Positions 376 to 62,161 of a DNA stretch of 64,000 nt are shown in pieces. Numbering within the stretch: position 1 is the first letter of the stretch; every line of letters starts with the position of its first letter. Below the pieces are notes generated by a model that was given only the letters and a program-made list of their open reading frames with translations, was not told where the DNA came from and did no database searches. The DNA comes from an uncultured delta proteobacterium. Lineage in GTDB: Bacteria > Desulfobacterota > Desulfuromonadia > Geobacterales > DSM-12255. The DNA is taken from positions 133,192 to 197,191 of the forward strand of contig CAWBBV010000004.1 of assembly GCA_963787125.1 (NCBI GenBank). Reading direction: 5' to 3'. Made by a program: the position numbers and the translations under genes.

Positions 376-2275
376 GTACGCCCGTCATGGGCGTGAACTT
401 ATGGGGTGCAAGTCCCCTGTACGGTGAATCCAACACTGTCGCGATGACAGCGTAAACCAAGTACTAGCCGAAGGCAAGGGCGTCTCCGCGAGGAGGGGTC
501 TGGAGGAAGCCGGAGCGCAAAGCTATGAGCCGACGAACAGAAACAGCATACAAGGCCATCATCCGGGCAAGTCAGCACAACATGACGAAGTCCCTCGGGT
601 TCAGGAGAAATGGTAAATGCTGCGGTTGTGTAGCCACAGTTCACGTTCTTATCCGGGGAGATCTGCTCCGCATGCCATTGATTCCTGATGGCGCGGCATC
701 TGGTAACAGCTGCCGTGATGGAGCAGAAGTCAGCAGAAGCCATAGTAGGCGAAGGACGTTGCCGCAAGCGATCCGGCAACTGGAAACAAGCCCGGGAGAG
801 TCCGGGAAGCCTTACCCCGCCGAAGGGCCGAACGATAGAAAAGGGGAGGAGCCCCAATGAGCTTTCATGACATATCGAACCCGTCCGGGGGAATGCCCAT
901 GGAGCGCGTCATTGACCAGCCAACCCCGGAGCAGCACCTACTGGAGCGGATATTATCCAGTGTGAACATGGAGCAAGCGTGGAAACGGGTCAAAGCCAAT
1001 AAGGGCGCACCCGGCGTCGATGGCATCACCATCGAACAATTCCCCGACCATACCCGTTCTCACTGGAACACTATTCGCGAATCGCTAATGACAGGCAGTT
1101 ACCAACCTTTGCCGGTAAAGCGGGTAGAGATTCCCAAAGCAACGGGTGGAACCCGTCCGCTGGGGATACCCACTGTACTTGACCGGCTGATCCAACAGTC
1201 CATTGCCCAAGTGTTGACACCGATCTTCGATCCGGACTTCTCCGCATCGAGCTTCGGTTTCCGTCCCCGTCGGTCAGCAAAAGATGCTGTCCGAAAGGTG
1301 CGGGAGTACATCCAGCAGGGATACCGGATTGCCGTGGATATTGACCTTGCCAAGTTCTTCGACACGGTCAACCATGATCTGCTCATGCACCTTGTGAGCA
1401 AGAAAGTTCACGACAAGCGGGTACTAGCCCTGATCGGCAAGTACTTACGGGCAGGTGTAGAGGTAAAAGGGCGTCTTGAAAAGACCAGACTGGGTGTCCC
1501 CCAGGGTGGCCCACTCTCGCCGCTTCTAGCCAACATCCTGCTCGACACACTGGACAAAGAACTTGAGAAACGCGGTCACAAATTCGTCCGCTATGCAGAC
1601 GACTTCGTCATCCTCGTCAAAAGCCAGCGCGCCGGCGACCGGGTAATGGAAGGAATGAAAACCTTCCTGACCAGCAAACTCAAGCTCACAGTCAATGAAA
1701 CCAAGAGTGCGGTAGCAAGAACATCCCGCATCGACTTCCTTGGTTTTATCTTCAGTGGCACCCGCATCATCTGGTCTGACAAGGCATACAAGGAATTCAG
1801 ACGCCGCGTCAAACAGTATACCGGAAGAAGCTGGCGGGTCTCCATGAAGTACCGGATGTACAAACTGGCTCAATATCTCCGTGGCTGGATGGGGTACTTC
1901 GGCATCTCGGAGTATTACCGGGAAATCCCGGAAATAGACGGCTGGATACGGCGCAGGATACGGCTCTGCTACTGGAAGCAGTGGCGCTGGTGTCGTACCA
2001 AGATTCGGGAGCTGCTCAAGTTGGGGACGGAGAAATTCACCGCCATCCGAGCGGGCCTGAATAGAAGTGGCCCGTGGGCCATGTCCCGAAGACTTGCAGC
2101 CCATACCGGTTTGACCAACAAATGTCTGAAGGATCAAGGTTTATTATCTGTCAAAGAACTGTGGGTGAAGCTTCACTACCCGGCTACGGCCCGGTAATTC
2201 TATCGAACCGCCGGATGCGGACCCGCATGTCCGGTGGTGTGGGGGCTGGGGGAGAAAAACCCCCGGCTACCCGAT
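376..2275 (+). mobile_element. Group IIC (attC-targeting) intron, copy 1, 1900 bp
   Basis: 5' GTACGCCCGTCATGGG, short IIC domain V GAACCGCCGGATGCGGACCCGCATGTCCGGTGGTGT, 3' end CTACCCGAT; inserted at TTGT/T, antisense to the cassettes. Confidence 0.95.
857..2197 (+). CDS. ltrA: Group II intron reverse transcriptase/maturase, no endonuclease domain
   Basis: NKGAPGVDG, RPLGIPTVLDR, GVPQGGPLSP, YADD motifs. Confidence 0.95.
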   Translation: MSFHDISNPSGGMPMERVIDQPTPEQHLLERILSSVNMEQAWKRVKANKGAPGVDGITIEQFPDHTRSHWNTIRESLMTGSYQPLPVKRVEIPKATGGTRPLGIPTVLDRLIQQSIAQVLTPIFDPDFSASSFGFRPRRSAKDAVRKVREYIQQGYRIAVDIDLAKFFDTVNHDLLMHLVSKKVHDKRVLALIGKYLRAGVEVKGRLEKTRLGVPQGGPLSPLLANILLDTLDKELEKRGHKFVRYADDFVILVKSQRAGDRVMEGMKTFLTSKLKLTVNETKSAVARTSRIDFLGFIFSGTRIIWSDKAYKEFRRRVKQYTGRSWRVSMKYRMYKLAQYLRGWMGYFGISEYYREIPEIDGWIRRRIRLCYWKQWRWCRTKIRELLKLGTEKFTAIRAGLNRSGPWAMSRRLAAHTGLTNKCLKDQGLLSVKELWVKLHYPATAR

Positions 2276-4920: not shown

Positions 4921-6552
4921 ATAATAGAACATCCACCTATTATTCCAATCCACAAAATGTAGTTTGGTAATTTAGCTGCGTTTTTGAGTGCCCTTTCTTT
5001 ATTTTCATAACGGTTATTACGGAGACGTACTAATTCTGATGCTTTATCACCGACATATGTGTCGATATTTTTCCGTATCATTCCACATATTGTATTAATA
5101 TCAGAATTTAATTTTGTGGTCGTATTATCATTGAAACACTCATAGGCATTTAATGAGTTTTTTATTTGAGCAGCTTCAATCATTTTTTTTGCATTTTCTT
5201 TAACTTCATTTATTCGGCTATCTGCATCACATTTAATGCCTAGGGAAGCGCATTTTGATGCCAACTCGTGAAGTGCATCAATCCTTGCATAAATTTCATT
5301 TTTCTTCTTAGCGAATAAGGTTCGTTGTTCTGAATTAGAACCAAATGATGTTTTGAGGGTTGAAAGATTCGTCTCAATAGCTTGAGTGAAATTAAGAATG
5401 TCAAGAAGGGGCATGTTGCTGCCGTTACTAATAAAATCTTTCCATCTACCGATTACAGTGTCATTTTCAGCCTCCGGGATTCGGTCAATAAACGGTTTAA
5501 GTTCATAAAGTGCCTTTTGCACTGTTTGTACCGCTTGACGGTACTTTTCTTTGCGAAGTGCCTCCAGAAACTCCCGTAGCTTGTTGTCATGTTTTTGAAA
5601 ATCACCATCACCAGCAGCCTTTAGGCTATAGAACCGATCAACCTCAATAGCCTTCCCAAGCACCGGAAGCGCAGTATTCACCTCACCCAATGCCATGCGT
5701 ACTTTGGCCGCCTGAAACAACGCCTCTCCCAGATTCGGATTAATGGCCAGTGCCTGCTCGGTATAAGCTAGCCCTTCTTTAAGTTTGCCTTGCCAGTAAG
5801 CAGCCCATCCAGCGGAAAGGAAAGCCTGAGCGGCATGCTCTGGATAATCGGTTCTTGCATATCGTGCAGCCAAGGCAAAAGATTCCTCGGCTGCGGCAAG
5901 GTCAACGAGTGCCATGTCGCCTTTCACGAACCCAAGACGAAGCGTTCCCTTCATCTGGTGAAAGCGCCACTCCAACTTGTAGCCGGTTGAGGTATGGTCA
6001 CCGCTGATGGCTTTTTCTAACGAATCCAAACACTCCAGATACAATTCTTGGCGAAAAGCATCACGGGCAATTTCATACTGTTCGTAAGCGGCGGTCTGTG
6101 CAGGTGTTTTTGCAATCTTGATCAACTCCGCCAATGCATCATTCATCCGTCCCATAGCGGCTATCATCTGGCCGAAACCCCAATGGAAAGTTGCATTCAG
6201 CTCTGCAATTCCGGCGGAAATTTCCTGCATTTCGTAAGTAATTTGGGAGAAACCATCTTGCATGATAGAGGAGAGTTCACCGAACCCGCTGTTCACTGCA
6301 TCGGTAATTTGTCCCGCTGCTACCTCTGTGGCCCGGATGTTTTCCCGCGACAATGCCTCATTGGAAGCAATTACGTCACGGGTTTGGCGAGAGATGTCCA
6401 TGGATATTCGTCGATTGGAAGAGGTGATGTCACCCACGAACTCATGAGCGACCAGATAGTCAACGTAACTCAGCTTACTGCCAAATATTGGATAGCCAGA
6501 AGCCATAACTCCTCCTCAATTTTGCATTTTTCTGGTGGTGGAATTTTCTGTC

Positions 6553-8561: not shown

Positions 8562-8636
8562 TTTGCCTCCCGTTGTTTTGATGTTCAACGTCATAAGCCT
8601 GACCGGCCGGTTTTTAGGGCCGGTCCTGGCGCTTGT

Positions 8637-10537
8637 GTACGCCCGTCATGGGCGTGAACTTATGGGGTGCAAGTCCCCTGTACGGTGAATCCAACACTGT
8701 CGCGAGACAGCGTAAACCAAGTACTAGCCGAAGGCAAGGGCGTCTCCGCGAGGAGGGGTCTGGAGGAAGCCGGAGCGCAAAGCTATGAGCCGACGAACAG
8801 AAACAGCATACAAGGCCATCATCCGGGCAAGTCAGCACAACATGACGAAGTCCCATGGGTTCAGGAGAAATGGTAAATGCTGCGGTTGTGTAGCCACAGT
8901 TCACGTTCTTATCCGGGGAGATCTGTCCGAATTGCCGTTCCAGATACGTGGGGCTGCGCTCTGCATGGCAACATGCCGGGTATCGGACAGAAGTCAGCAG
9001 AAGCCATAGTAGGCGCGAGACGTTGCCGCAAGCGATCCGGCAACTGGAAACAAGCCCGGCAGAGTCCGGGAAGCCTTACCCCGCCGAAGGGCCGAACGAA
9101 GAAAGGGGAGTAGCACCAATGAGCTTTCATGACATAAAGAACCCGTCCGGGGGAATGCCTATGGAGCGCGTCATTGATCAGCCAACCCCTGAGCAGCACC
9201 TACTGGAGCGGATACTCTCCAGTGCGAACATGGAGCAAGCGTGGAAACGGGTCAAAGCCAATAAGGGCGCACCCGGCGTCGATGGCATCACCATCGAACA
9301 ATTCCCCGACCATACCCGTTCTCACTGGAACACTATTCGCGAATCGCTAATGACAGGCAGTTACCAACCTTTGCCGGTAAAGCGGGTAGAGATTCCCAAA
9401 GCAACGGGTGGAACCCGTCCGCTGGGGATACCCACTGTACTTGACCGGCTGATCCAACAGTCCATTGCCCAAGTGTTGACACCGATCTTCGATCCGGACT
9501 TCTCCGCATCGAGCTTCGGTTTCCGTCCCCGTCGGTCAGCAAAAGATGCTGTCCGAAAGGTGCGGGAGTACATCCAGCAGGGATACCGGATTGCCGTGGA
9601 TATTGACCTTGCCAAGTTCTTCGACACGGTCAACCATGATCTGCTCATGCACCTTGTGAGCAAGAAAGTTCACGACAAGCGGGTACTAGCCCTGATCGGC
9701 ACGTACTTACGGGCAGGTGTAAAGGTAAACGGGCGTCTTGAAAAGACCAGACTGGGTGTTCCCCAGGGTGGCCCCCTCTCGCCGCTTCTTGCCAATATCC
9801 TGCTCGACACACTGGACAAAGAACTTGAGAAACGCGGTCACAAGTTCGTCCGCTATGCAGACGACTTCGTCATCCTCGTCAAAAGCCAGCGCGCCGGCGT
9901 CCGGGTAATGGAAGGGATGAAAACCTTCCTGACCAGCAAACTCAAGCTTAACGTCAATGAAACCAAGAGTGCGGTAGCAAGAACATCCCGCATCGACTTC
10001 CTTGGTTTTATCTTCAGTGGCACCCGCATCATCTGGTCTGACAAGGCATACAAGGAATTCAGACGCCGCGTCAAACAGTATACCGGAAGAAGCTGGCGGG
10101 TCTCCATGAAGTACCGGTTGTATAAACTGGCTCAATATCTCCGTGGCTGGATGGGGTACTTCGGAATATCGGAGTATTACCGTGAAATTCCGGAAATAGA
10201 CGGTTGGATAAGGCGCAGGATACGGCTCTGTTACTGGAAACAGTGGCGCTGGTGTCGTACCAAGATCAAGAATCTACTGGCACTTGGTACGCAACTTGGC
10301 ACCGCCATCCGAGCGGGCCTGAATAGAAGCGGCCCGTGGGCGATGTCCCGAAGATTGGCTGCTCATACCGGTTTGACCAACAAATGTCTGAAGGATCAAG
10401 GCTTATTATCTGTCAAAGAACTGTGGGTGAAGCTTCACTACCCGGCTACGGCCCGGTAATTCTATCGAACCGCCGGATGCGGACCCGCATGTCCGGTGGT
10501 GTGGGGGCTGGGGGAGAAAAACCCCCGGCTACCCGAT
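8637..10537 (+). mobile_element. Group IIC (attC-targeting) intron, copy 2, 1901 bp
   Basis: Same GTACG start, domain V/VI and CCCGAT end as copy 1; TTGT/T insertion site. Confidence 0.95.
9119..10459 (+). CDS. ltrA: Group II intron reverse transcriptase/maturase
   Basis: Near-identical to 857-2197; start set by homology with copy 1. Confidence 0.95.
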   Translation: MSFHDIKNPSGGMPMERVIDQPTPEQHLLERILSSANMEQAWKRVKANKGAPGVDGITIEQFPDHTRSHWNTIRESLMTGSYQPLPVKRVEIPKATGGTRPLGIPTVLDRLIQQSIAQVLTPIFDPDFSASSFGFRPRRSAKDAVRKVREYIQQGYRIAVDIDLAKFFDTVNHDLLMHLVSKKVHDKRVLALIGTYLRAGVKVNGRLEKTRLGVPQGGPLSPLLANILLDTLDKELEKRGHKFVRYADDFVILVKSQRAGVRVMEGMKTFLTSKLKLNVNETKSAVARTSRIDFLGFIFSGTRIIWSDKAYKEFRRRVKQYTGRSWRVSMKYRLYKLAQYLRGWMGYFGISEYYREIPEIDGWIRRRIRLCYWKQWRWCRTKIKNLLALGTQLGTAIRAGLNRSGPWAMSRRLAAHTGLTNKCLKDQGLLSVKELWVKLHYPATAR

Positions 10538-19298: not shown

Positions 19299-19367
19299 GG
19301 CTAACGGTGCCGCGCTTGACCTGCCGGGCGGGTTTATGCCCGGTCATGGTCTGAGCGCGTGTTAGCT
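19299..19367 (-). repeat. attC site, same family as 14286-14354
   Basis: ggctaac...gcgcttgacctgccgggc/gcccggtcatggtctgagcgc...gttagct. Confidence 0.92.
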
Positions 19368-19368
19368 G

Positions 19369-19767
19369 TCAAAGTCCTTCTATTTTCTGAACCGTTAGCA
19401 ATACCTTTGTCATGTGGTGAGCGGTATGCGCATGGAAAAGAGTCCCTGTTGCCTTTATCTTCTTGCCATTGTATTTTTTGACAATTGCTTTTGAGGACGC
19501 TGCATCTCCCATTAAGACCAGCTGTACTAATTTCACGCCTTTTTCAGCATCTCCGAAATCATCTTTTGCGACATCTACAGCGGCATCCAGCTTGATTGCG
19601 TAATACCTACTCTTCTTGCCGGTTTCTTCGTCTTTGTGCTCTGGCTTCACGAATGTTCCAACAAGTTGCACAACTTCAGGTTCTGTTTTCAACTCCACTC
19701 CGAAAGCGAAAGAAGAAATGAGCAAGCACATGCACAAAAGTACGCATCGAAATATTTTCTGATTCAT
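19369..19767 (-). CDS. Exported DUF4431-like OB-fold protein, cassette gene
   Basis: Signal peptide; GTLFHAHTAHHMTKVLL motif. Confidence 0.75.
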   Translation of the reverse strand: MNQKIFRCVLLCMCLLISSFAFGVELKTEPEVVQLVGTFVKPEHKDEETGKKSRYYAIKLDAAVDVAKDDFGDAEKGVKLVQLVLMGDAASSKAIVKKYNGKKIKATGTLFHAHTAHHMTKVLLTVQKIEGL

Positions 19768-19785
19768 TCATTCTCCTTATTCAGC

Positions 19786-22034
19786 ACCGGGTAGGTCAGG
19801 AGCCTTTCGGCTCCTTTCCCCCCTCAGAACCGTACGTGACAGTTTCCCGTCATACGGCTCAAGCCCTCCAAAGTAATCTCCCTCTCGGGATACCCGGCTA
19901 TCTGCTTCTTTCCTCGGTGTTGTTGTCCCTTCACGCCGCTTTTCGGGCGGCGCGACCTGCTCGCCTTCTTTGTTGCTCGGCTCTTCGCGCCTTGAAGTAT
20001 GCTTCATACTCCGGGTCGAAGGGATTGGCGGCACCGCGAATCTTGATGTGTCTCTCGATCTTGGTGCTGGTAGCGTGAATGAGTGTTACCCGGCGTTTTC
20101 CTTCCGGGGTTTTCTCCATCACGGAGAAGTACGTGCTCACGGGGGTGCTGTGCCAGTATGTCTTCGTCAGCCAGCGCTTCCCCTTGTGCGGATGCCTTCT
20201 CCTTGCCCAATCCCGCAGGTAGCGGTAGATTTGGCTGTCCAGTGCGGCGAAGGTGGCTTTTGCGGCGATGTTCCGGTGATAGTTGCTCCAGCCCCGAATG
20301 ATCGGATTCAAGGCGCGGATCATATCACCGGCTTTCATTGCCGAGAATTTCCGGATCGTCTCCCTGATTCTGGTCAGGATGGTTCTGTAGTTGCTCCTGG
20401 CCGGTTTCGTTAGGAACTTCCCGCTGTACTTGCGCGGGTGTTGCCCCAGAAAGTCGAATCCGTCCTCTATCCGCGTTATCCGGGTTTTCTCCGGGGAGAG
20501 GGTGAGACCTCTTTCTTGAAGAAACCTTTCTACCGCTGGTTTGATCGTCTCTTCGAGAAGTTCTTTCGTCTTCCCGGTGATGACGAAGTCGTCGGCGTAG
20601 CGGATAACGTTGACTTTGGTGCGGTAAGGGGTGACGGCTTTTACTGCCGCTTCCAGACCGTCCAGAGTCATGTTGGCCAAGAGCGGGGAGATGATTCCCC
20701 CTTGCGGGGTTCCCGCTTTGGTCGGATAGAGTCTGCCTTCGTCGAAGTACCCTGCGTTCAGCCACTGCCGGAGCATAAGACGATCCATGGGGATATTGCT
20801 CATGAGCCAGTCATGGCCAATCTCGTCGAAACAGGCTTTGATGTCTCCTTCCAGTATCCATTGTGCCGAGTACTTCTTTGCCAGTCCGATGTAGCATTGG
20901 TGGATGGCGTCGGCGCAACTTCGATACGGGCGGAATCCGTATGAATTGGGATCACCCTTAGTCTCGGCCACCGGTAACAGTGCTTGTGCGTAAAGCGCTT
21001 GCATAGCCCTGTCATGCATGGTGGGGATACCCAAAGGGCGCATCTTGCCGTTCTTCTTCGGTATGTAGACCCGCCGTAGTGGCCGGGCTTGATAACCGCG
21101 ACGTTGCAAGGTGTGTACAGCTTTCATTCTCTGCTTCGGCGTGTACCAGATTGCTCCGTCCACGCCGGGGGTTTTTCTTCCTCGATTGGAAACAACCCGT
21201 TTGACGGCTAATGCTTTGCCGGCAAACGAGTGGGTCAGAAGCCATTGCAGGGTTTTCACTCTGCCGCGGCGACCTTCCCTGACAGCCTTTGCGATACGGA
21301 TTTGCAGTCTTCGGACTTCGCGGCGGGCTTTCTGCCAGTTTATGGCTTTCCAGTCGTTGCCGCTGGCGGAGGGTGCACCAGTCAATCTTGCGATTGCCGC
21401 CATTTGCTTTCCCTCCCAAGGAAGATTCTCCAAACGATCTCGCAATGGAGCACCGGCATTGGACGTCAGCTCCCTTTCGGGCCGAGTGATGTTTCAACCC
21501 GTATCCGTCCCATTACAGGGCGGCATTCGCTTCTTCCGGCCTCTTACTCCCGCACTCCCGACAGTGTGCCTTACGGTTTCACCTGCTCCAGTCTACCGGA
21601 GCGGAAATACGGGGTTTCCACGTTCCACGTCTCTGACGATGGGTGACTTAGGTCCATTCTGTACACCGGCAGCACTATTGTCCCCGCAGGGGCACCGTTA
21701 CATCCCCTGACCGGCTGCATACCTTTTGGTTCAAGCCTGTCAGCCTCATTTGGCTTGCTCCCCTTGACGGCGCGAGCGAACGTTCACTTGTGTTGACCAT
21801 ATCACCTTTGAATCCTAGCCCTCACCCGGATCAAGGCTTCCAGGAGGGCGGTCGCCTCACGGTTTCCGCCCCTCCCGCAACAGCGGAATTCGGCTACATT
21901 GTTGGAAGGGCTCCGCACCAGCATGGATGCACCATGGCAGCACGCCTTCCTAGGATACCCGCGGGGGAACACGGGGTCTGGTCAGAATAATCATCATTCA
22001 GCCAGACAGTCATCAACGCGACATCGTGTCGCGA
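19786..22034 (-). mobile_element. Group II intron (IIB-like, non-canonical ends TCGCG...CCGGT), 2249 bp, inserted in an attC R' box
   Basis: Full-length domain V GAGCCGTATGACGGGAAACTGTCACGTACGGTTC; removal restores GTTA|GCTG, the exact complement of the cassette's R'' CAGCTAAC. Confidence 0.88.
19931..21403 (-). CDS. ltrA: Group II intron RT/maturase with RVT_N-type N-terminus, no HNH domain
   Basis: NRGRKTPGVDG, GTPQGGIISP, YADD; GGAGG RBS before the ATG at 21403 (track start 21445). Confidence 0.93.
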   Translation of the reverse strand: MAAIARLTGAPSASGNDWKAINWQKARREVRRLQIRIAKAVREGRRGRVKTLQWLLTHSFAGKALAVKRVVSNRGRKTPGVDGAIWYTPKQRMKAVHTLQRRGYQARPLRRVYIPKKNGKMRPLGIPTMHDRAMQALYAQALLPVAETKGDPNSYGFRPYRSCADAIHQCYIGLAKKYSAQWILEGDIKACFDEIGHDWLMSNIPMDRLMLRQWLNAGYFDEGRLYPTKAGTPQGGIISPLLANMTLDGLEAAVKAVTPYRTKVNVIRYADDFVITGKTKELLEETIKPAVERFLQERGLTLSPEKTRITRIEDGFDFLGQHPRKYSGKFLTKPARSNYRTILTRIRETIRKFSAMKAGDMIRALNPIIRGWSNYHRNIAAKATFAALDSQIYRYLRDWARRRHPHKGKRWLTKTYWHSTPVSTYFSVMEKTPEGKRRVTLIHATSTKIERHIKIRGAANPFDPEYEAYFKARRAEQQRRRAGRAARKAA

Positions 22035-22095
22035 TAACGGGGCCGAGGCGCACCGGCGGAGCGTAGCGAAGACCAAGTGCCGCCCATTGTTCGGC
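22035..22095 (-). repeat. attC site whose R' box is cut by the IIB-like intron
   Basis: taac ggggccga GGCGCAC...GTGCCGCC catt gttcggc. Confidence 0.85.
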
Positions 22096-22127: not shown

Positions 22128-23030
22128 TCAAGGCAACACCATGGGTGTCATATCTGTCATTCTAGATCGCTCATTTGTAGAAGCAGAAATAGCTTGCACA
22201 CCATAATAATAAACCTTCAATTTCTCCGCAGTTCTATCAATATAGGTGTTCGTGCCGTTTGGCAGATCGGCAATTTTTCTTTTAATTACTCCGTCCGGGT
22301 CTTCGGTTCTGAATACCATATATCCGGTTACCCACTCTGGGTCTTGGGGTGAGAGCTTCCAATTAAGCTGGAGGCCTGTTTCTGTAGGCTTGACGAGCAA
22401 TTCTCTATCTATGTCAATATTGATGTAAACCTTAATATCTACTGATTCGCTCTTATCGTCTGCATTAATTGATACAATTGCCCTACCTAAGTTTAATGCG
22501 GTCATTACTCCATTACTATCGACAGACACTATATTTGAATCGCTGCTAGTATAAGTAGCACTAATTTCCCTTCGAACATTATCTGTGAATAGACCTTGAA
22601 CCCTTAGTTTCCTTGTATTTAATGGTTTACCAACCGCGCTTTTCAAAATTGAATCACTTTTGCCTACAATAATTTTTTCCAATTTAACATCCGATTGAAG
22701 TTGAACTGTGATACTTATTGATGATTCCACTACATCTCTGTCTTTGTTAATTTTTGAAATAGCAGTAATTTTTTCTTTACCTACATATTGATCATCTAAT
22801 TTTAGCTCAGTTTCAAAAGGAGGCCCTTCAAGAATTTCCGAACCACCTCTTGTTGTTTTAATCCACATTCCATTAAGCTTTTCTCCATGCGAAGGAAGAA
22901 CTACAACTTTTACTTTCTGCCCTGTATGAAAAACAGCATTGTTCTCAGGTTGCACGATGGTAATAGCATAACCTTTACTTACTACGTCCATTAATAGAAG
23001 CCATAAGATTACACTCGCCTTTCTATTCAT
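22128..23030 (-). CDS. Exported Ig-like (Big_2) plus fibronectin-III domain protein, cassette gene
   Basis: YTSSDSNIVSVDSNGVMTA; LNW...GYMVFR...YIDRT...YYYGVQA. Confidence 0.8.
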   Translation of the reverse strand: MNRKASVILWLLLMDVVSKGYAITIVQPENNAVFHTGQKVKVVVLPSHGEKLNGMWIKTTRGGSEILEGPPFETELKLDDQYVGKEKITAISKINKDRDVVESSISITVQLQSDVKLEKIIVGKSDSILKSAVGKPLNTRKLRVQGLFTDNVRREISATYTSSDSNIVSVDSNGVMTALNLGRAIVSINADDKSESVDIKVYINIDIDRELLVKPTETGLQLNWKLSPQDPEWVTGYMVFRTEDPDGVIKRKIADLPNGTNTYIDRTAEKLKVYYYGVQAISASTNERSRMTDMTPMVLP

Positions 23031-23706: not shown

Positions 23707-23768
23707 TCCCAACGGCTTCGCAGTTGACCCGCCGTCTTTTTGGGCGGTGTCCAACGGCGTGGTTATAC
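23707..23768 (-). repeat. attC site
   Basis: tcccaac...GTTGACCCGCC/GGCGGTGTCCAAC...gttatac. Confidence 0.88.
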
Positions 23769-23806
23769 CTTCGGGTCACGCCGTTGGAACTGAAGAAGCC
23801 TCCATT

Positions 23807-28126: not shown

Positions 28127-29482
28127 ATGACACCTGTGTCGAATATGATTTTTAGTCAATATGAGTTTATCCTCAAAGAACTACATATTCCGGTTGCCCT
28201 GTTTGCTGATTACAAGAAATGGCTGCGCTATTATTTGGATTACTGCGCGAAATATCTGGCGCAGGTTTCCAACAGTGAAAAGGTGCGTCTGTTTTTGGCA
28301 AAGTTACGCGAAAAGAAACAGACCGAGAAGCAGTGCCAGCAGGCAGTTCATGCAATATCACTTTATTTTGAGATGCAACGCCTTGAGATTCCGAAAGATA
28401 ATTCCTTGGAGAAACAAGATCAACAATGTCATGTCGCGCCGCCAGTACAGCAGGTCCAACCGATGTATATTCAGCGAAAATCCCAATATTGCGAGGCGGG
28501 GTATCAGGTAAAATCTTCCTCACCGGAATGGGACGCCTTGCTTGAGGTTATGGCGGGAGAGATAAAGGTCCGCCATTATTCTCGCCGGACATTAAAAACT
28601 TACGCCAACTGGTCAAGACAGTTTCAGCGCTTCCTGAAAAACAAACCGCCAGAGAGTTTATCAACCGCCGATGTGAAAGAGTACCTGACGTTTCTGGCGG
28701 TTAAGTGCAAAGTTGCCGCATCAACCCAGAACCAGGCGTTCAATTCTCTTCTTTTCCTGTATCGCCATGGACTGAAACGGGAATTCGGCCAGTTGCGCGA
28801 CGTGCCGCGGGCAAAGAAGTCACTTTACATCCCGACCGTGCTTTCCAGACCGGAAATAGACGCTATCCTGGCCCAGTTGTCACACCCTTTCAAACTCGTC
28901 GTCTACTTGCTATTCGGCTGTGGGCTTCGGAAATTCGAAGTGATGCAACTGCGGGTGAGGGATTTCAACTTCGACACTGGCAAACTAACAGTGCACGGCA
29001 AAGGCAATAAGGATCGGACCGTGCCGCTGCCGCAATCGATCATGTCTGAAATCAAGGCCCAGTTTGTGGCGGTGGGGAAGCTGCATGACCGTGATTTGGC
29101 AGCCGGGTACGACGGGGTGTTTCTGGATGATGCAGTGGAAAAGAAATATCCCAAAGCGCCGAAGGAGCTTATGCATCAATGGTTCTTTCCGCAACGGTCA
29201 TTGACGCTGGTTGAGGAGACCGGCCAGCGGAGGCGCTACCACCTCCACGCTTCCCAGTTTGAAGAGGCGCTCTATAATGCCGTCCACAAGGCAAAAATTA
29301 CAAAGCGTGTCACTGCGCATACCTTCAGACACTCCTTCGCAACCCATTTGTTGCAGGCAGGCTACGACATCCGCGTCATTCAGACTCTGTTGGGCCACGC
29401 CAGCCTGAAGACAACCATGATTTACACTCATTGTGTGCCGGTAATGACGATCAAGGAGCCGCGTAGTCCGCTGGATCTTTGA
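28127..29482 (+). CDS. intI: Integron integrase, long 451-aa form
   Basis: HYSRRTLKTY, ASTQNQAFNSLLFLY, catalytic R-K-HTFRH-LGH-Y, integron-specific insert QWFFP...RRRYHLH. Confidence 0.96.
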   Translation: MTPVSNMIFSQYEFILKELHIPVALFADYKKWLRYYLDYCAKYLAQVSNSEKVRLFLAKLREKKQTEKQCQQAVHAISLYFEMQRLEIPKDNSLEKQDQQCHVAPPVQQVQPMYIQRKSQYCEAGYQVKSSSPEWDALLEVMAGEIKVRHYSRRTLKTYANWSRQFQRFLKNKPPESLSTADVKEYLTFLAVKCKVAASTQNQAFNSLLFLYRHGLKREFGQLRDVPRAKKSLYIPTVLSRPEIDAILAQLSHPFKLVVYLLFGCGLRKFEVMQLRVRDFNFDTGKLTVHGKGNKDRTVPLPQSIMSEIKAQFVAVGKLHDRDLAAGYDGVFLDDAVEKKYPKAPKELMHQWFFPQRSLTLVEETGQRRRYHLHASQFEEALYNAVHKAKITKRVTAHTFRHSFATHLLQAGYDIRVIQTLLGHASLKTTMIYTHCVPVMTIKEPRSPLDL

Positions 29483-60405: not shown

Positions 60406-60474
60406 GACCAACGTTCATAAGGCTGACCCGTCCGACCGGTTCCTCGGGCGGCCTGGTCGTGTTGCAAGTTGGAA
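60406..60474 (-). repeat. attC site (satellite cluster)
   Basis: gaccaac gttcataaggctgacc...ggcctggtcgtgttgcaa gttggaa; resembles the 2804/8583/25239 family, somewhat degenerate. Confidence 0.65.
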
Positions 60475-60506
60475 GTTCGGTTTTCAGCACTCTTTTTCTT
60501 TAGGAC

Positions 60507-60535
60507 TTGACCTGTGTAAACAAATTGTTTATATT
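60507..60535 (+). promoter_or_regulatory. higBA promoter with palindromic operator
   Basis: TTGACC-17bp-TATATT; TAAACAAATTGTTTA; ATG 7 nt downstream suggests a leaderless mRNA. Confidence 0.7.
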
Positions 60536-60541
60536 GTGTCC

Positions 60542-60823
60542 ATGATCACATCATTCGCGAACAAAGAAGCTGAAAAACTCTTTGCCACGGGGAAATCTAA
60601 AAAACATCCAACTGAAATCATAACCCGTGCGATCATGCGATTAACGCAGTTGGACAATGCACGCGAGGTTGCTGATTTGCTAATGCCCCCGTCAAACCGC
60701 CTTGAAAACCTTTCCGGTGATAGAGCGGGACAGTGGAGCATCAGAATTAATGACCAGTGGCGCGTATGCTTTCAGTTTGCCAATGGTGATGCTACTGATG
60801 TCGAAATTACTGATTACCATTAA
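60542..60823 (+). CDS. higB: HigB (RelE/ParE-like) toxin
   Basis: PPSNRLENLSGDRAGQWSIRINDQWRVCF...DYH. Confidence 0.93.
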   Translation: MITSFANKEAEKLFATGKSKKHPTEIITRAIMRLTQLDNAREVADLLMPPSNRLENLSGDRAGQWSIRINDQWRVCFQFANGDATDVEITDYH

Positions 60824-60835
60824 AGGAGAAATCTT

Positions 60836-61138
60836 ATGGCTATCAAAAATGGGCTTCCCCCCATACATCCTGGAGTCTTCTTGAAGGAAATACTTGGTGA
60901 GCTTGGCATGTCTCAAAACGCATTTGCTCATGCAATTGGCGTTTCACCCATGCGAATATCTCATGTGATCAAAGGCTCACGACCTGTTACGGCAGAGCTG
61001 GCTGTTCTTTTCGGCAAAGTATTCGGTCAGACACCCACCTATTGGATGAACTTGCAAACCAGCTATGACCTCAAGACTGCTCAAAAAGCGATGGTACAGA
61101 GGGTACAACAAGTACAGCCACTTTTGATGGCTGCATAG
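60836..61138 (+). CDS. higA: HigA antitoxin
   Basis: PPIHPGVFLKE...WMNLQTSYDL. Confidence 0.93.
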   Translation: MAIKNGLPPIHPGVFLKEILGELGMSQNAFAHAIGVSPMRISHVIKGSRPVTAELAVLFGKVFGQTPTYWMNLQTSYDLKTAQKAMVQRVQQVQPLLMAA

Positions 61139-61457
61139 AGGTTTGTTCACCAAGATAATTTCCTGTGTTCAAGATTAATGACTAATCTTGCGGCAGAATC
61201 CACCGTTCCATCTGGTCTCAATTTCTCCTCGCATATGCACGCTTCACCGATACCAACCCTATTTGCTGGAACATAATTACCATGCAGATATATGCCCACC
61301 CAGCAACGCTGTACGGCAGGCGGTGATTCGCTCCGCCGCCCGCCACATGTGCGGAGGCAGTGGCTTGCCGCCAAATTTGTTCTTTAAACCGCACTCTATG
61401 ATCTGCTGCAGGCTCACTCTATGTCTCCGTAAAGTGGCGTAACATCCTTGAATTATT

Positions 61458-61527
61458 ATTCAACGTGGTCGAGGCGCAGCGGCGGCGCGGTCATCCGCGC
61501 CGACCTGCTGCCGCCGAGTGGTTGGAT
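61458..61527 (-). repeat. attC site (satellite cluster)
   Basis: attcaac...GGCGCAGC..CGGCGCGG/CCGCGCCG..GCTGCCGCC...gttggat. Confidence 0.88.
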
Positions 61528-61533
61528 GATCCG

Positions 61534-61800
61534 TTACTCGTAATGCGTCCACATGCGGATTACTTTTATTGTTTTGATATCTTCTAGCACCTCATAAACC
61601 AGTCGATGCTGAATATTGATTCTACGGGAATATGCACCTGACAGATCGCCGACAAGTTTTTCGTATGGTGGGGGATTTTTGAAGGGATTTTCTTTGATGA
61701 TTTCAAGTAGTCGTTCGGCTTGCGGCTTTAACCCGGAGTGCGCGATCTTTTTTGCATCTTTTTGCGCTTGCTTGGTAAATACAAGTTGCCAGATTACCAT
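61534..61800 (-). CDS. yoeB: Txe/YoeB toxin
   Basis: PPYEKLVGDLSGAYSRRINIQHRLVY...MWTHYE. Confidence 0.94.
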   Translation of the reverse strand: MVIWQLVFTKQAQKDAKKIAHSGLKPQAERLLEIIKENPFKNPPPYEKLVGDLSGAYSRRINIQHRLVYEVLEDIKTIKVIRMWTHYE

Positions 61801-62042
61801 GCAAGTTCCTCACTGCACTCGGATACCGGGGTTTTGAGACCTTTCTTGATGGATTCTCGCATTAAGGGAATTGAAGTGAGATACAAAGTTTCCTGAATAG
61901 CACGCCAATCGTCTTCTGAGATGAGAACTGCTGAATGACGTTTGCCAACAATCTGGATTGGGTCATGCGATAAAGCGACATCATCGACAAGGTTATATAG
62001 GGATTTTCTTGCTTCTGTTGCTGATAGTGTTGTCATTTTCAA
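61794..62042 (-). CDS. yefM: Phd/YefM antitoxin
   Basis: SATEARKSLYNLVD...IQETLYL; start TTG 62042 or ATG 62036. Confidence 0.93.
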   Translation of the reverse strand: MKMTTLSATEARKSLYNLVDDVALSHDPIQIVGKRHSAVLISEDDWRAIQETLYLTSIPLMRESIKKGLKTPVSECSEELAW

Positions 62043-62054
62043 TCACCTCCCTTT

Positions 62055-62093
62055 CGTACGTTAAATCGTACGCTGGTGGCAGTGTTAAGTCAA
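62055..62093 (-). promoter_or_regulatory. yefM-yoeB promoter and operator
   Basis: TTGACT-17bp-TACGAT; two CGTACG palindromes 12 bp apart. Confidence 0.75.
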
Positions 62094-62103
62094 TTTATTT
62101 CTC

Positions 62104-62161
62104 ATCTAACGGATCGGGAGAACAGCGGCGGTCTTTGGCCGGTGCATCTTCCTGGTTGAAA
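62104..62161 (-). repeat. attC site (satellite cluster)
   Basis: atctaac ggatcgggagaacagcggc...gccggtgcatcttcctg gttgaaa; resembles the attC sites at 320 and 18112. Confidence 0.82.

Follow-up and report, generated by a model that had tools for sequence, protein, structure and literature searches.

What leads a group II intron into the recombination core of an integron cassette, on the strand from which the cassettes are read? The question is raised by a locus of an uncultured delta proteobacterium (Desulfobacterota, Geobacterales; assembly GCA_963787125.1, contig CAWBBV010000004.1), of which we have analyzed a window of 64,000 nucleotides (nt), the whole stretch from 133,192 to 197,191 of the contig; coordinates are those of the window. 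Many bacteria capture genes mainly by means of integrons, and the only well-studied introns that invade the attC recombination sites of integrons (the class C introns known as IIC-attC) insert antisense to the cassettes and are unable to splice out of cassette transcripts. The intron described here is co-oriented with the cassettes and splits the R' box of an attC as GTTA|GCTG (the bar marks the insertion point). Our analysis indicates that it is very probably an intact, recently mobile intron of the chloroplast-like 1 (CL1)/IIB1 type, lacking an endonuclease domain, whose lineage homes to the core of the attC R' box on the top (cassette-sense) strand. The features that define the insertion are these:

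19786-22034, minus strand: the full group II intron, 2249 nt, 5' UCGCGAC...CCCGGU 3', delimited from two identical copies, Rfam matches and homologue junctions.
22035-22095, minus strand: 5' part of the interrupted attC, with R'' GCCGAAC at 22089-22095 and the GTTA of R' at 22035-22038.
19782-19785, minus strand: start of the 3' exon, GCTG, i.e. the rest of R' plus the first bases of the downstream cassette.
19299-19368, minus strand: attC of the downstream cassette, 46.5 bits with our attC covariance model (it is a training sequence), with R'' CAGCTAAC at 19361-19368.

The same genome contains a second full copy on another contig (L001, G000:C5:24933-27181), with 100% identity over nt 1-2249 (2/2 genome matches), inserted at GTTG| of another attC where the attC model gives a match at the junction (23.5 bits). 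The copies diverge exactly where the flanks begin, with ...CCCCGTTA|TCGCGAC vs ...AGCCGTTG|TCGCGAC at the 5' side and CCCGGT|GCTGAAT vs CCCGGT|GAGCAAA at the 3' side. The 3' end is fixed by 14 junctions, two own and twelve from other genomes, since all of them end in CCGGT (14/14) with a varied next base (G,G,A,T,A,T,A,A,G,G,C,G,T,A). When the intron is removed in silico, GTTA and GCTG join to form the complement of the downstream R'' CAGCTAAC (19368-19361) in 8/8 positions, as a first-pass annotation of this DNA had stated; this R'' lies directly after the stop codon of the DUF4431 cassette gene. The annotation had also placed the intron on the top strand, with UCGCG...GGU ends and 3 nt past the G/TT crossover in R', and the junctions of the own copies and of the homologues agree. 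The same removal at the homologue L009 gave an 11-nt match (GTTATAAACCC vs GGGTTTATAAC). By exact search the complement of the restored R' was found 3' of the intron in one of 8 homologue loci (L009), and L005 fits it in 7/8 positions by eye; in the other six no R'' match to the restored R' is present within the fetched flank.

All the parts expected of a group II intron retroelement are present, namely a domain V, a domain VI with bulged A and an open reading frame (ORF) for a reverse transcriptase (RT)/maturase:

19931-21403, minus strand: intron-encoded RT/maturase, 490 aa, with YADD; Pfam RVT_N, RVT_1 and GIIM; TIGR04416 368 bits.
19827-19860, minus strand: domain V, 34 nt, with the AGC triad (Rfam and fold).
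19789-19823, minus strand: domain VI, with the bulged branch A at 19792, seven nt from the end (fold).
22017-22033, minus strand: 5'-terminal hairpin, intron nt 2-18, CGCGAC/GUCGCG (fold).

Rfam detected group-II-D1D4-7 (RF02012, 91.3 bits) at 21818-21976(-) and domain V/VI (RF00029, 69.8 bits) at 19786-19862(-). Together, domains V and VI have a folding energy of -42.5 kcal/mol (z = -6.8), and the 5'-terminal hairpin is kept in 9/9 aligned copies, its loop alone being variable. The start ATG of the RT ORF is preceded by GGGAGG, and there is no endonuclease family among the Pfam matches of this ORF. The closest solved chain is 6ME0_C, the RT of T.el4h (548 bits, residues 3-478), an intron also called Th.e.I3 and classed as IIB1 with a CL1 RT in PMC8643678. 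The values for other RTs were 134 bits for GsI-IIC, 140 for 7UIM (class C) and 133 for LtrA; GsI-IIC gave 470 bits with the RT of the two other introns of the window. Because the T.el4h RT scores far above the class C and IIA RTs (<=140), on this similarity the intron appears CL1/IIB1-like, without endonuclease domain (RT of 490 aa vs 562 aa in T.el4h), and falls outside class C. This is in line with the first-pass annotation, which had called the intron non-IIC with a full-length domain V and an RVT_N-type RT; the 34 nt of domain V in Rfam and fold and the Pfam match agree on the last two.

The attC R' box is a recurrent target of these introns in three data sets. Candidate sites were evaluated with a covariance model trained on 13 attCs of the window, leaving out the interrupted one, and built on a hand-drawn structure (the RNAalifold consensus was poor and hairpin-energy scans were too noisy). 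An RT-based scan of one genome per species provided 32 loci, eight with a full 5' junction. Including the two own copies, all full 5' junctions (10/10) fall in one of two registers, GTTR| in 8 and GTT| in 2, and the attC-like hairpin preceding the junction differs each time. At sites unseen in training the model match ended 2-3 nt into the intron in 6/8 foreign loci (E 6e-5 to 0.03). The second data set came from the 20-nt intron start, which occurred 34 times in 24/239 genomes of the same order (reversed control pattern, 0). The 30 loci listed (of 34) were without exception at GTT| (2), GTTN| (25) or GTTNN| (3); they include the two own copies, and several repeat RT-scan loci. Finally, the same pattern gave at least 80 loci in metagenome contigs, 78 with at least 80 nt upstream, and the metagenome counts given here and below are among the matches listed. 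GTT was found 0-2 nt before the intron in 60/78 junctions (GTTN| 20, GTTNN| 38, GTT| 2), the chance expectation for a given trinucleotide at three positions being about 5% by our estimate. Model matches at E <=0.1 abut the junction in 21/22 cases and cover 17/20 GTTN| vs 3/38 GTTNN| loci, the attCs of the latter differing in type from those of the training set. The recurrence of the target, which the annotation had put forward to be checked on homologue flanks, was therefore found in all three collections.

These counts also bear on a hitch-hiking scenario, in which integrase-mediated shuffling of cassettes and duplication of attCs would have spread a single old insertion, with no site-specific homing involved. 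The intron is on the cassette side of the crossover, so that it could in principle move with the cassette. However, the attC sequences and the downstream cassettes differ at every site, the upstream 60-mers are distinct in 78/78 metagenome loci, two identical copies within one genome are found at unrelated attCs and cassettes, and there are three insertion registers, each with its matching exon-binding site (see below). The scenario is largely contradicted already, and we consider it extremely improbable. What the data describe is a lineage that occupies many independent attC sites.

Several observations accompany these loci. At two of the 78 metagenome junctions listed (L061 and L106) the intron's 5' end lies directly on the CCGGT 3' end of another copy, i.e. 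the introns are in tandem. Related genomes carry stubs (L172, L173, L175, L176, L182, L194, L199 and others) in which the first 23-260 nt are kept at an attC and followed by unrelated DNA; L172 has roughly 28 nt from the 5' end fused to the final 9 nt (the ACCCGGT end). Such retention of the 5' end is the opposite of the product expected from incomplete reverse transcription. As for mobile integrons, in a plasmid collection the full-length matches had about 55% identity and 13 records reached 60-80% at their best place; no record above 80% was among the best 5000, which gives no evidence either way.

The exact position within R' can be traced to base pairing between exon-binding sites (EBS) of the intron and intron-binding sites (IBS) of the interrupted attC:

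21695-21700, minus strand: EBS1 UAACGG, in the loop of the hairpin CAGGGG-AUGUAACGGUG-CCCCUG; six pairs with the exon CCGUUA.
22035-22040, minus strand: IBS1 CCGTTA, in the interrupted attC.
21743-21749, minus strand: candidate EBS2 AUGAGGC, in a hairpin loop.
22043-22049, minus strand: candidate IBS2, in the interrupted attC.

In the 28 GTTN| sites compared, C-5, G-4, T-3 and T-2 are invariant, position -1 is a purine (11 A, 17 G) and 17 sites have C at -6, while any base is found at +1 of the 3' exon. The TA|G triplet that the first-pass annotation saw at the insertion point is then a coincidence of one site. Its link to translation stop and start signals is not supported either, the neighbouring ribosome-binding site (RBS) being simply the start of the next cassette. 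EBS1 UAACGG is complementary to the exon CCGTTR, and where EBS1 is shifted the register of insertion is shifted with it. We surveyed the loop in 38 loci (including the two own copies, several rows being the same DNA as RT-scan loci), of which 8 were too short and 11 had no EBS1-like loop there, nine of these being stubs. The GTTR| rows that reach the loop have AUGUAACGGUG (EBS1 UAACGG) in 13/13 cases. The GTT| rows have AUGAACGGGUU in 4/4, with AACGGG pairing CCCGUU (L005, L178, L006 and L184, although L005 and L178 look like the same DNA), and the two GTTGA| copies, L171 and L177, have UCAACG or UUAACG. This covariation of the loop with the register GTT|, GTTR| or GTTGA| confirms both the EBS1-IBS1 pairing and the 5' splice site.

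The second pairing is less regular. At least six of seven pairs between the candidate EBS2 and GCCUYRU, at -15..-9 or -14..-8, were found in 15/28 GTTN| sites, the control offsets giving about 0.5% per offset, and the EBS2-IBS2 spacing is the canonical IIB1 distance as given in PMC8643678. The loop AUGAGGC has been seen in genome copies alone, the exon motif GCCUYRU is also common in these attCs and the own second copy pairs in only 4/7 positions; for these reasons, and with 15/28 sites fitting, AUGAGGC is a candidate EBS2 only. The mapping of EBS1 and EBS2 in domain I that the annotation had proposed thus succeeded for EBS1 and yielded a candidate for EBS2.

An alternative to recognition by pairing is a targeting like that of class C introns, in which the attC hairpin would mainly be recognized as a structure by the protein or the ribonucleoprotein (RNP) and EBS1 would merely set the exact nucleotide. 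Every site does follow an imperfect hairpin, the EBS2 pairing is absent or weak in 13/28 sites (the second own copy included), and hairpin recognition was raised as an idea for the intron UHB.I2 by Sonbol and Siam (PMC7923331). On the other hand, the 3' arm of the attC hairpin holds both IBS1 and the candidate IBS2, so that the pairing needs this arm unfolded, which argues for recognition of sequence over a IIC-like recognition of the stem-loop. Moreover, the five to six EBS1 pairs are of IIB length, vs the 3-4 pairs of IIC introns described in PMC7923331, and the insertion register tracks EBS1. We therefore regard structural recognition as unlikely, and site choice by pairing to the R' core as the better explanation.

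The ends of the intron raise a different question. The group II boundary consensus is GUGYG...AY and every copy of this lineage examined has UCGCG...GU instead. The first 11 nt align with GUGCGACACGA of canonical relatives, with the substitutions G1U and U2C, and relatives at 49-59% RT identity start with GUGCGACACGA at the homologous place and, from the position after domain VI, would end in ...CGAC. At the 3' end the attC lineage shows A-to-G and C-to-U in the last two positions. In group II introns the first nucleotide interacts with the penultimate one, and a joint change of both ends would fit such an interaction. The changed ends are thus probably paired substitutions of the canonical GU...AC ends, and the UC...GU ends are predicted to be competent. 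We also considered intron nt 1-12 as a 5' extension before a degenerate GUCGCG, which is ruled out by the start of the relatives with GUGCGACACGA at the homologous position.

In an RT phylogeny of 20 rows, of the kind suggested by the annotation, the UC..GU rows are on one side of a single branch (support 65/99), and one end change is needed in 100% of the bootstrap trees; the backbone is weak, with several forks left open and with branches that are long. For three rows the label was taken from a single intron end, L011 and L013 from the 3' end and L018 from the 5' end. The tree was made without L002 (the own duplicate), without L003, L012, L024 and L032 (in-frame stops in the matched stretch) and without the partial matches L010, L017, L022, L025, L026, L028, L030, L031 and L033. 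The relatives at 49-59% identity sit elsewhere, at a repeated non-attC site in a Planctomycetaceae genome and at a motif of an RT gene in L027. In the latter (about 1854-1884) the canonical-ended relative immediately follows IEDGFDFLGQ, a coding motif in another RT gene, which resembles a twintron in that the target is an intron ORF. In L007 (about 5185-5198) a downstream attC reads ...CCCCGT followed by GTGCGCC, like a canonical intron start at GT| of R' on the same strand.

Odd ends could also be a sign of decay, in an element dead for splicing or for mobility. The spliced junction was not seen in the contigs of sequencing runs, and 3'-deleted stubs of the family are many in related genomes, both of which would suit such a relic. 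Against it, UCGCG...CCGGU is kept in every copy examined across 72-88% RT identity, two full copies are identical, the RT reading frame is uninterrupted and has YADD, and the fold of domains V and VI has the z value given above. A relic is therefore very unlikely. Since the two 100% identical copies are at different attCs, the ORF is open with YADD and domains V and VI are intact, the element appears instead to be intact and to have moved recently.

Is the interrupted site an attC at all? The surroundings are those of an integron, with an IntI signature and an array of attC-bounded cassettes:

28127-29482, plus strand: integron integrase intI, divergent from the cassette array; TIGR02249 348.7 bits (cut-off 265).
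22128-23030, minus strand: upstream cassette gene with a Big_2 domain, 300 aa; the interrupted attC belongs to it.
19369-19767, minus strand: downstream cassette gene, DUF4431, 132 aa, with the RBS AAGGAG 7 nt before the ATG.

The attC model found 16 minus-strand sites between 320 and 26780, 11 of them training sequences. With the filters off, the interrupted site gave a match at 22032-22095 (12.7 bits, E 0.033 in a 2-kb search), and its R'' GCCGAAC fits the start of the Big_2 cassette, GTTCGGT, in 6/7 positions. We take it as an attC from the model match, its place behind the Big_2 gene, this 6/7 fit of R'' and the 8/8 fit of the restored R'; it qualifies weakly. The intron keeps the GTT of R', and the distal R box is replaced by intron sequence. 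In an excised circle the R''/R' match of the downstream cassette would, judging by the letters, drop from the restored 8 bp to 4 bp.

There are a number of points that weigh against an intact intron homing to attC R', besides the non-canonical ends, the weak backbone and one-end labels of the tree and, on the side of EBS2, the poor pairing in 13/28 sites and the commonness of the exon motif. The interrupted attC is the weakest of the array, with a hairpin no better than shuffles (z = 0.49). Two of the 8 homologue loci gave weak model matches (E 0.36 and 0.48), and 16/78 metagenome junctions are placed otherwise than at GTT. For an EBS3 partner, domain I has no convincing covarying column, the search giving a weak 7/8 column in the 5' hairpin loop. 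No empty copy of the insertion site of 19786-22034 was found among the 239 genomes of the order, with downstream cassette DNA as the query, of which only the attC part (query 414-490) matched save for one weak 75-nt gene match. Among the contigs assembled from four sequencing runs none joins across 19786-22034, a result uninformative on splicing either way; no run contained half of the query words, and the RNA contigs at 90-95% likeness that cover parts of the ribozyme and ORF come from relatives.

There is one published precedent for a sense-strand IIB intron at an attC in the full-text literature (subscription journals not covered), the single metagenomic intron UHB.I2 (Sonbol and Siam, 2021, Mob DNA 12:8, PMC7923331). 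According to the parts of that article dealing with it, UHB.I2 is a IIB1 intron with an endonuclease-less CL1 RT and UUGCG..GU ends, located 'immediately after an attC'. It resembles our intron in class, in the CL1 RT without endonuclease, in the cassette sense, in the position after an attC and in starting with U and ending with GU, the similarity of the RTs being judged by eye alone. The differences are that position 2 is U in UHB.I2 and C here, and that UHB.I2 is a single case for which its authors, in the text on this intron, gave no conserved target and speculated on a top-strand hairpin, whereas the present lineage has a recurrent, EBS1-paired target with shifting register. In Table S1 of PMC7923331 the predicted attC overlaps the annotated start of UHB.I2 by 2 nt, which in our reading would mean the GTTNN| register. 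The logic common to the family described here (EBS1 on the R' core, sliding registers and paired end substitutions) was not found in print in the same literature.

The IIC-attC introns (S.ma.I2 type), as portrayed in the relevant parts of PMC7923331 and PMC4424553, are also endonuclease-less and home to attC beside a conserved GTT after a hairpin on the entered strand. They differ in having a class C RT and ribozyme and in entering the bottom strand of attC, antisense to the cassettes, at TTGT/T within the complement of R'', with a 3-4 bp EBS1 and stem-loop recognition, whereas the present intron enters the top strand, in sense, at GTTR| of R'. The annotation was thus correct in seeing a route different from theirs (top strand, EBS1-register pairing and a non-IIC RT). 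Its premise that attC introns are IIC and bottom-strand holds for the described IIC-attC type and omits UHB.I2 as well as a IIC intron in an Enterobacter cloacae class 1 integron, cited in PMC7923331. The latter is also in sense on the attC top strand, but it is of class C and was reported as an isolated oddity. Th.e.I3/T.el4h and EcI5, IIB1 introns with a CL1 RT, have the layout of our intron, in which IBS1 occupies -1..-6 and IBS2 begins at -9 and runs upstream, leaving two nt between them, and differ in their GUGYG...AY ends, endonuclease domain and long double-stranded DNA homing sites, following what PMC8643678 says of them.

For the mobility of the present intron we propose that the RNP would reverse-splice into single-stranded top-strand DNA, helped at about half of the sites by the second pairing of the candidate EBS2 AUGAGGC with GCCUYRU in the L'-R' spacer. 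Synthesis of cDNA would be primed by the strand of the replication fork, as in other endonuclease-less introns. Co-transcribed with the cassettes, the intron could be spliced from the array transcript, which would bring back the junction GUUA|GCUG upstream of the RBS of the following gene. In a broader and more tentative view, which we hold as possible rather than probable, this whole CL1/IIB1 sub-lineage, common in metagenomes of sediment, groundwater and soil, would be an integron specialist. Both ends would have been re-tuned together (U1C2...G-2U-1), EBS1 would slide over at least three R' registers, insertion would be in sense on the cassette side of G/TT, and the intron would be a self-splicing passenger spread by retrohoming and by integrase carriage of cassettes. 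If so, taking the place of the distal R box could allow it to modulate how cassettes are excised.

The lineage represents a second type of integron-invading intron, of IIB type, with sense-strand entry at a defined base of the recombination core that programmable base pairing apparently selects. Such a lineage is relevant to the tolerance of cassette arrays for mobile introns, to the question whether introns alter cassette excision, to the amount of joint drift that the two splice-site ends of a group II intron can undergo, and to the possibility of aiming IIB1 targetron-like RNPs at single-stranded, hairpin-prone DNA. With both intron types in a single array, the window offers a natural system for comparing them.

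Some minor features of the window and the genome complete the picture. CGTTR is present in 10/12 unoccupied attCs of the array that were inspected, yet one array site alone holds the sense-strand intron. The GC skew of the window gives no replication direction. Two overlapping AAC...GTT hairpins at 23707-23789(-), left out of the training of the model, may represent an attC that is doubled or nested. Some 30 kb past intI the model has clear matches at 61458-61527 and 62104-62161 and a weak one at 60406-60474, all on the minus strand, and these (60406-62161) may form a small integrase-less cluster outside the main array. A second integron integrase of the genome (L036, G000:C23:106715-107650, 337.8 bits) is on another contig, and a third contig, on which no integrase match was found, carries the second intron copy in the midst of attCs. 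The two class C introns of the window, 376-2275(+) and 8637-10537(+), are a near-identical pair in the same array, antisense to the cassettes, and each is inserted at TTGT|T on the bottom strand of an attC (model matches 320-379 and 8583-8640, minus strand).

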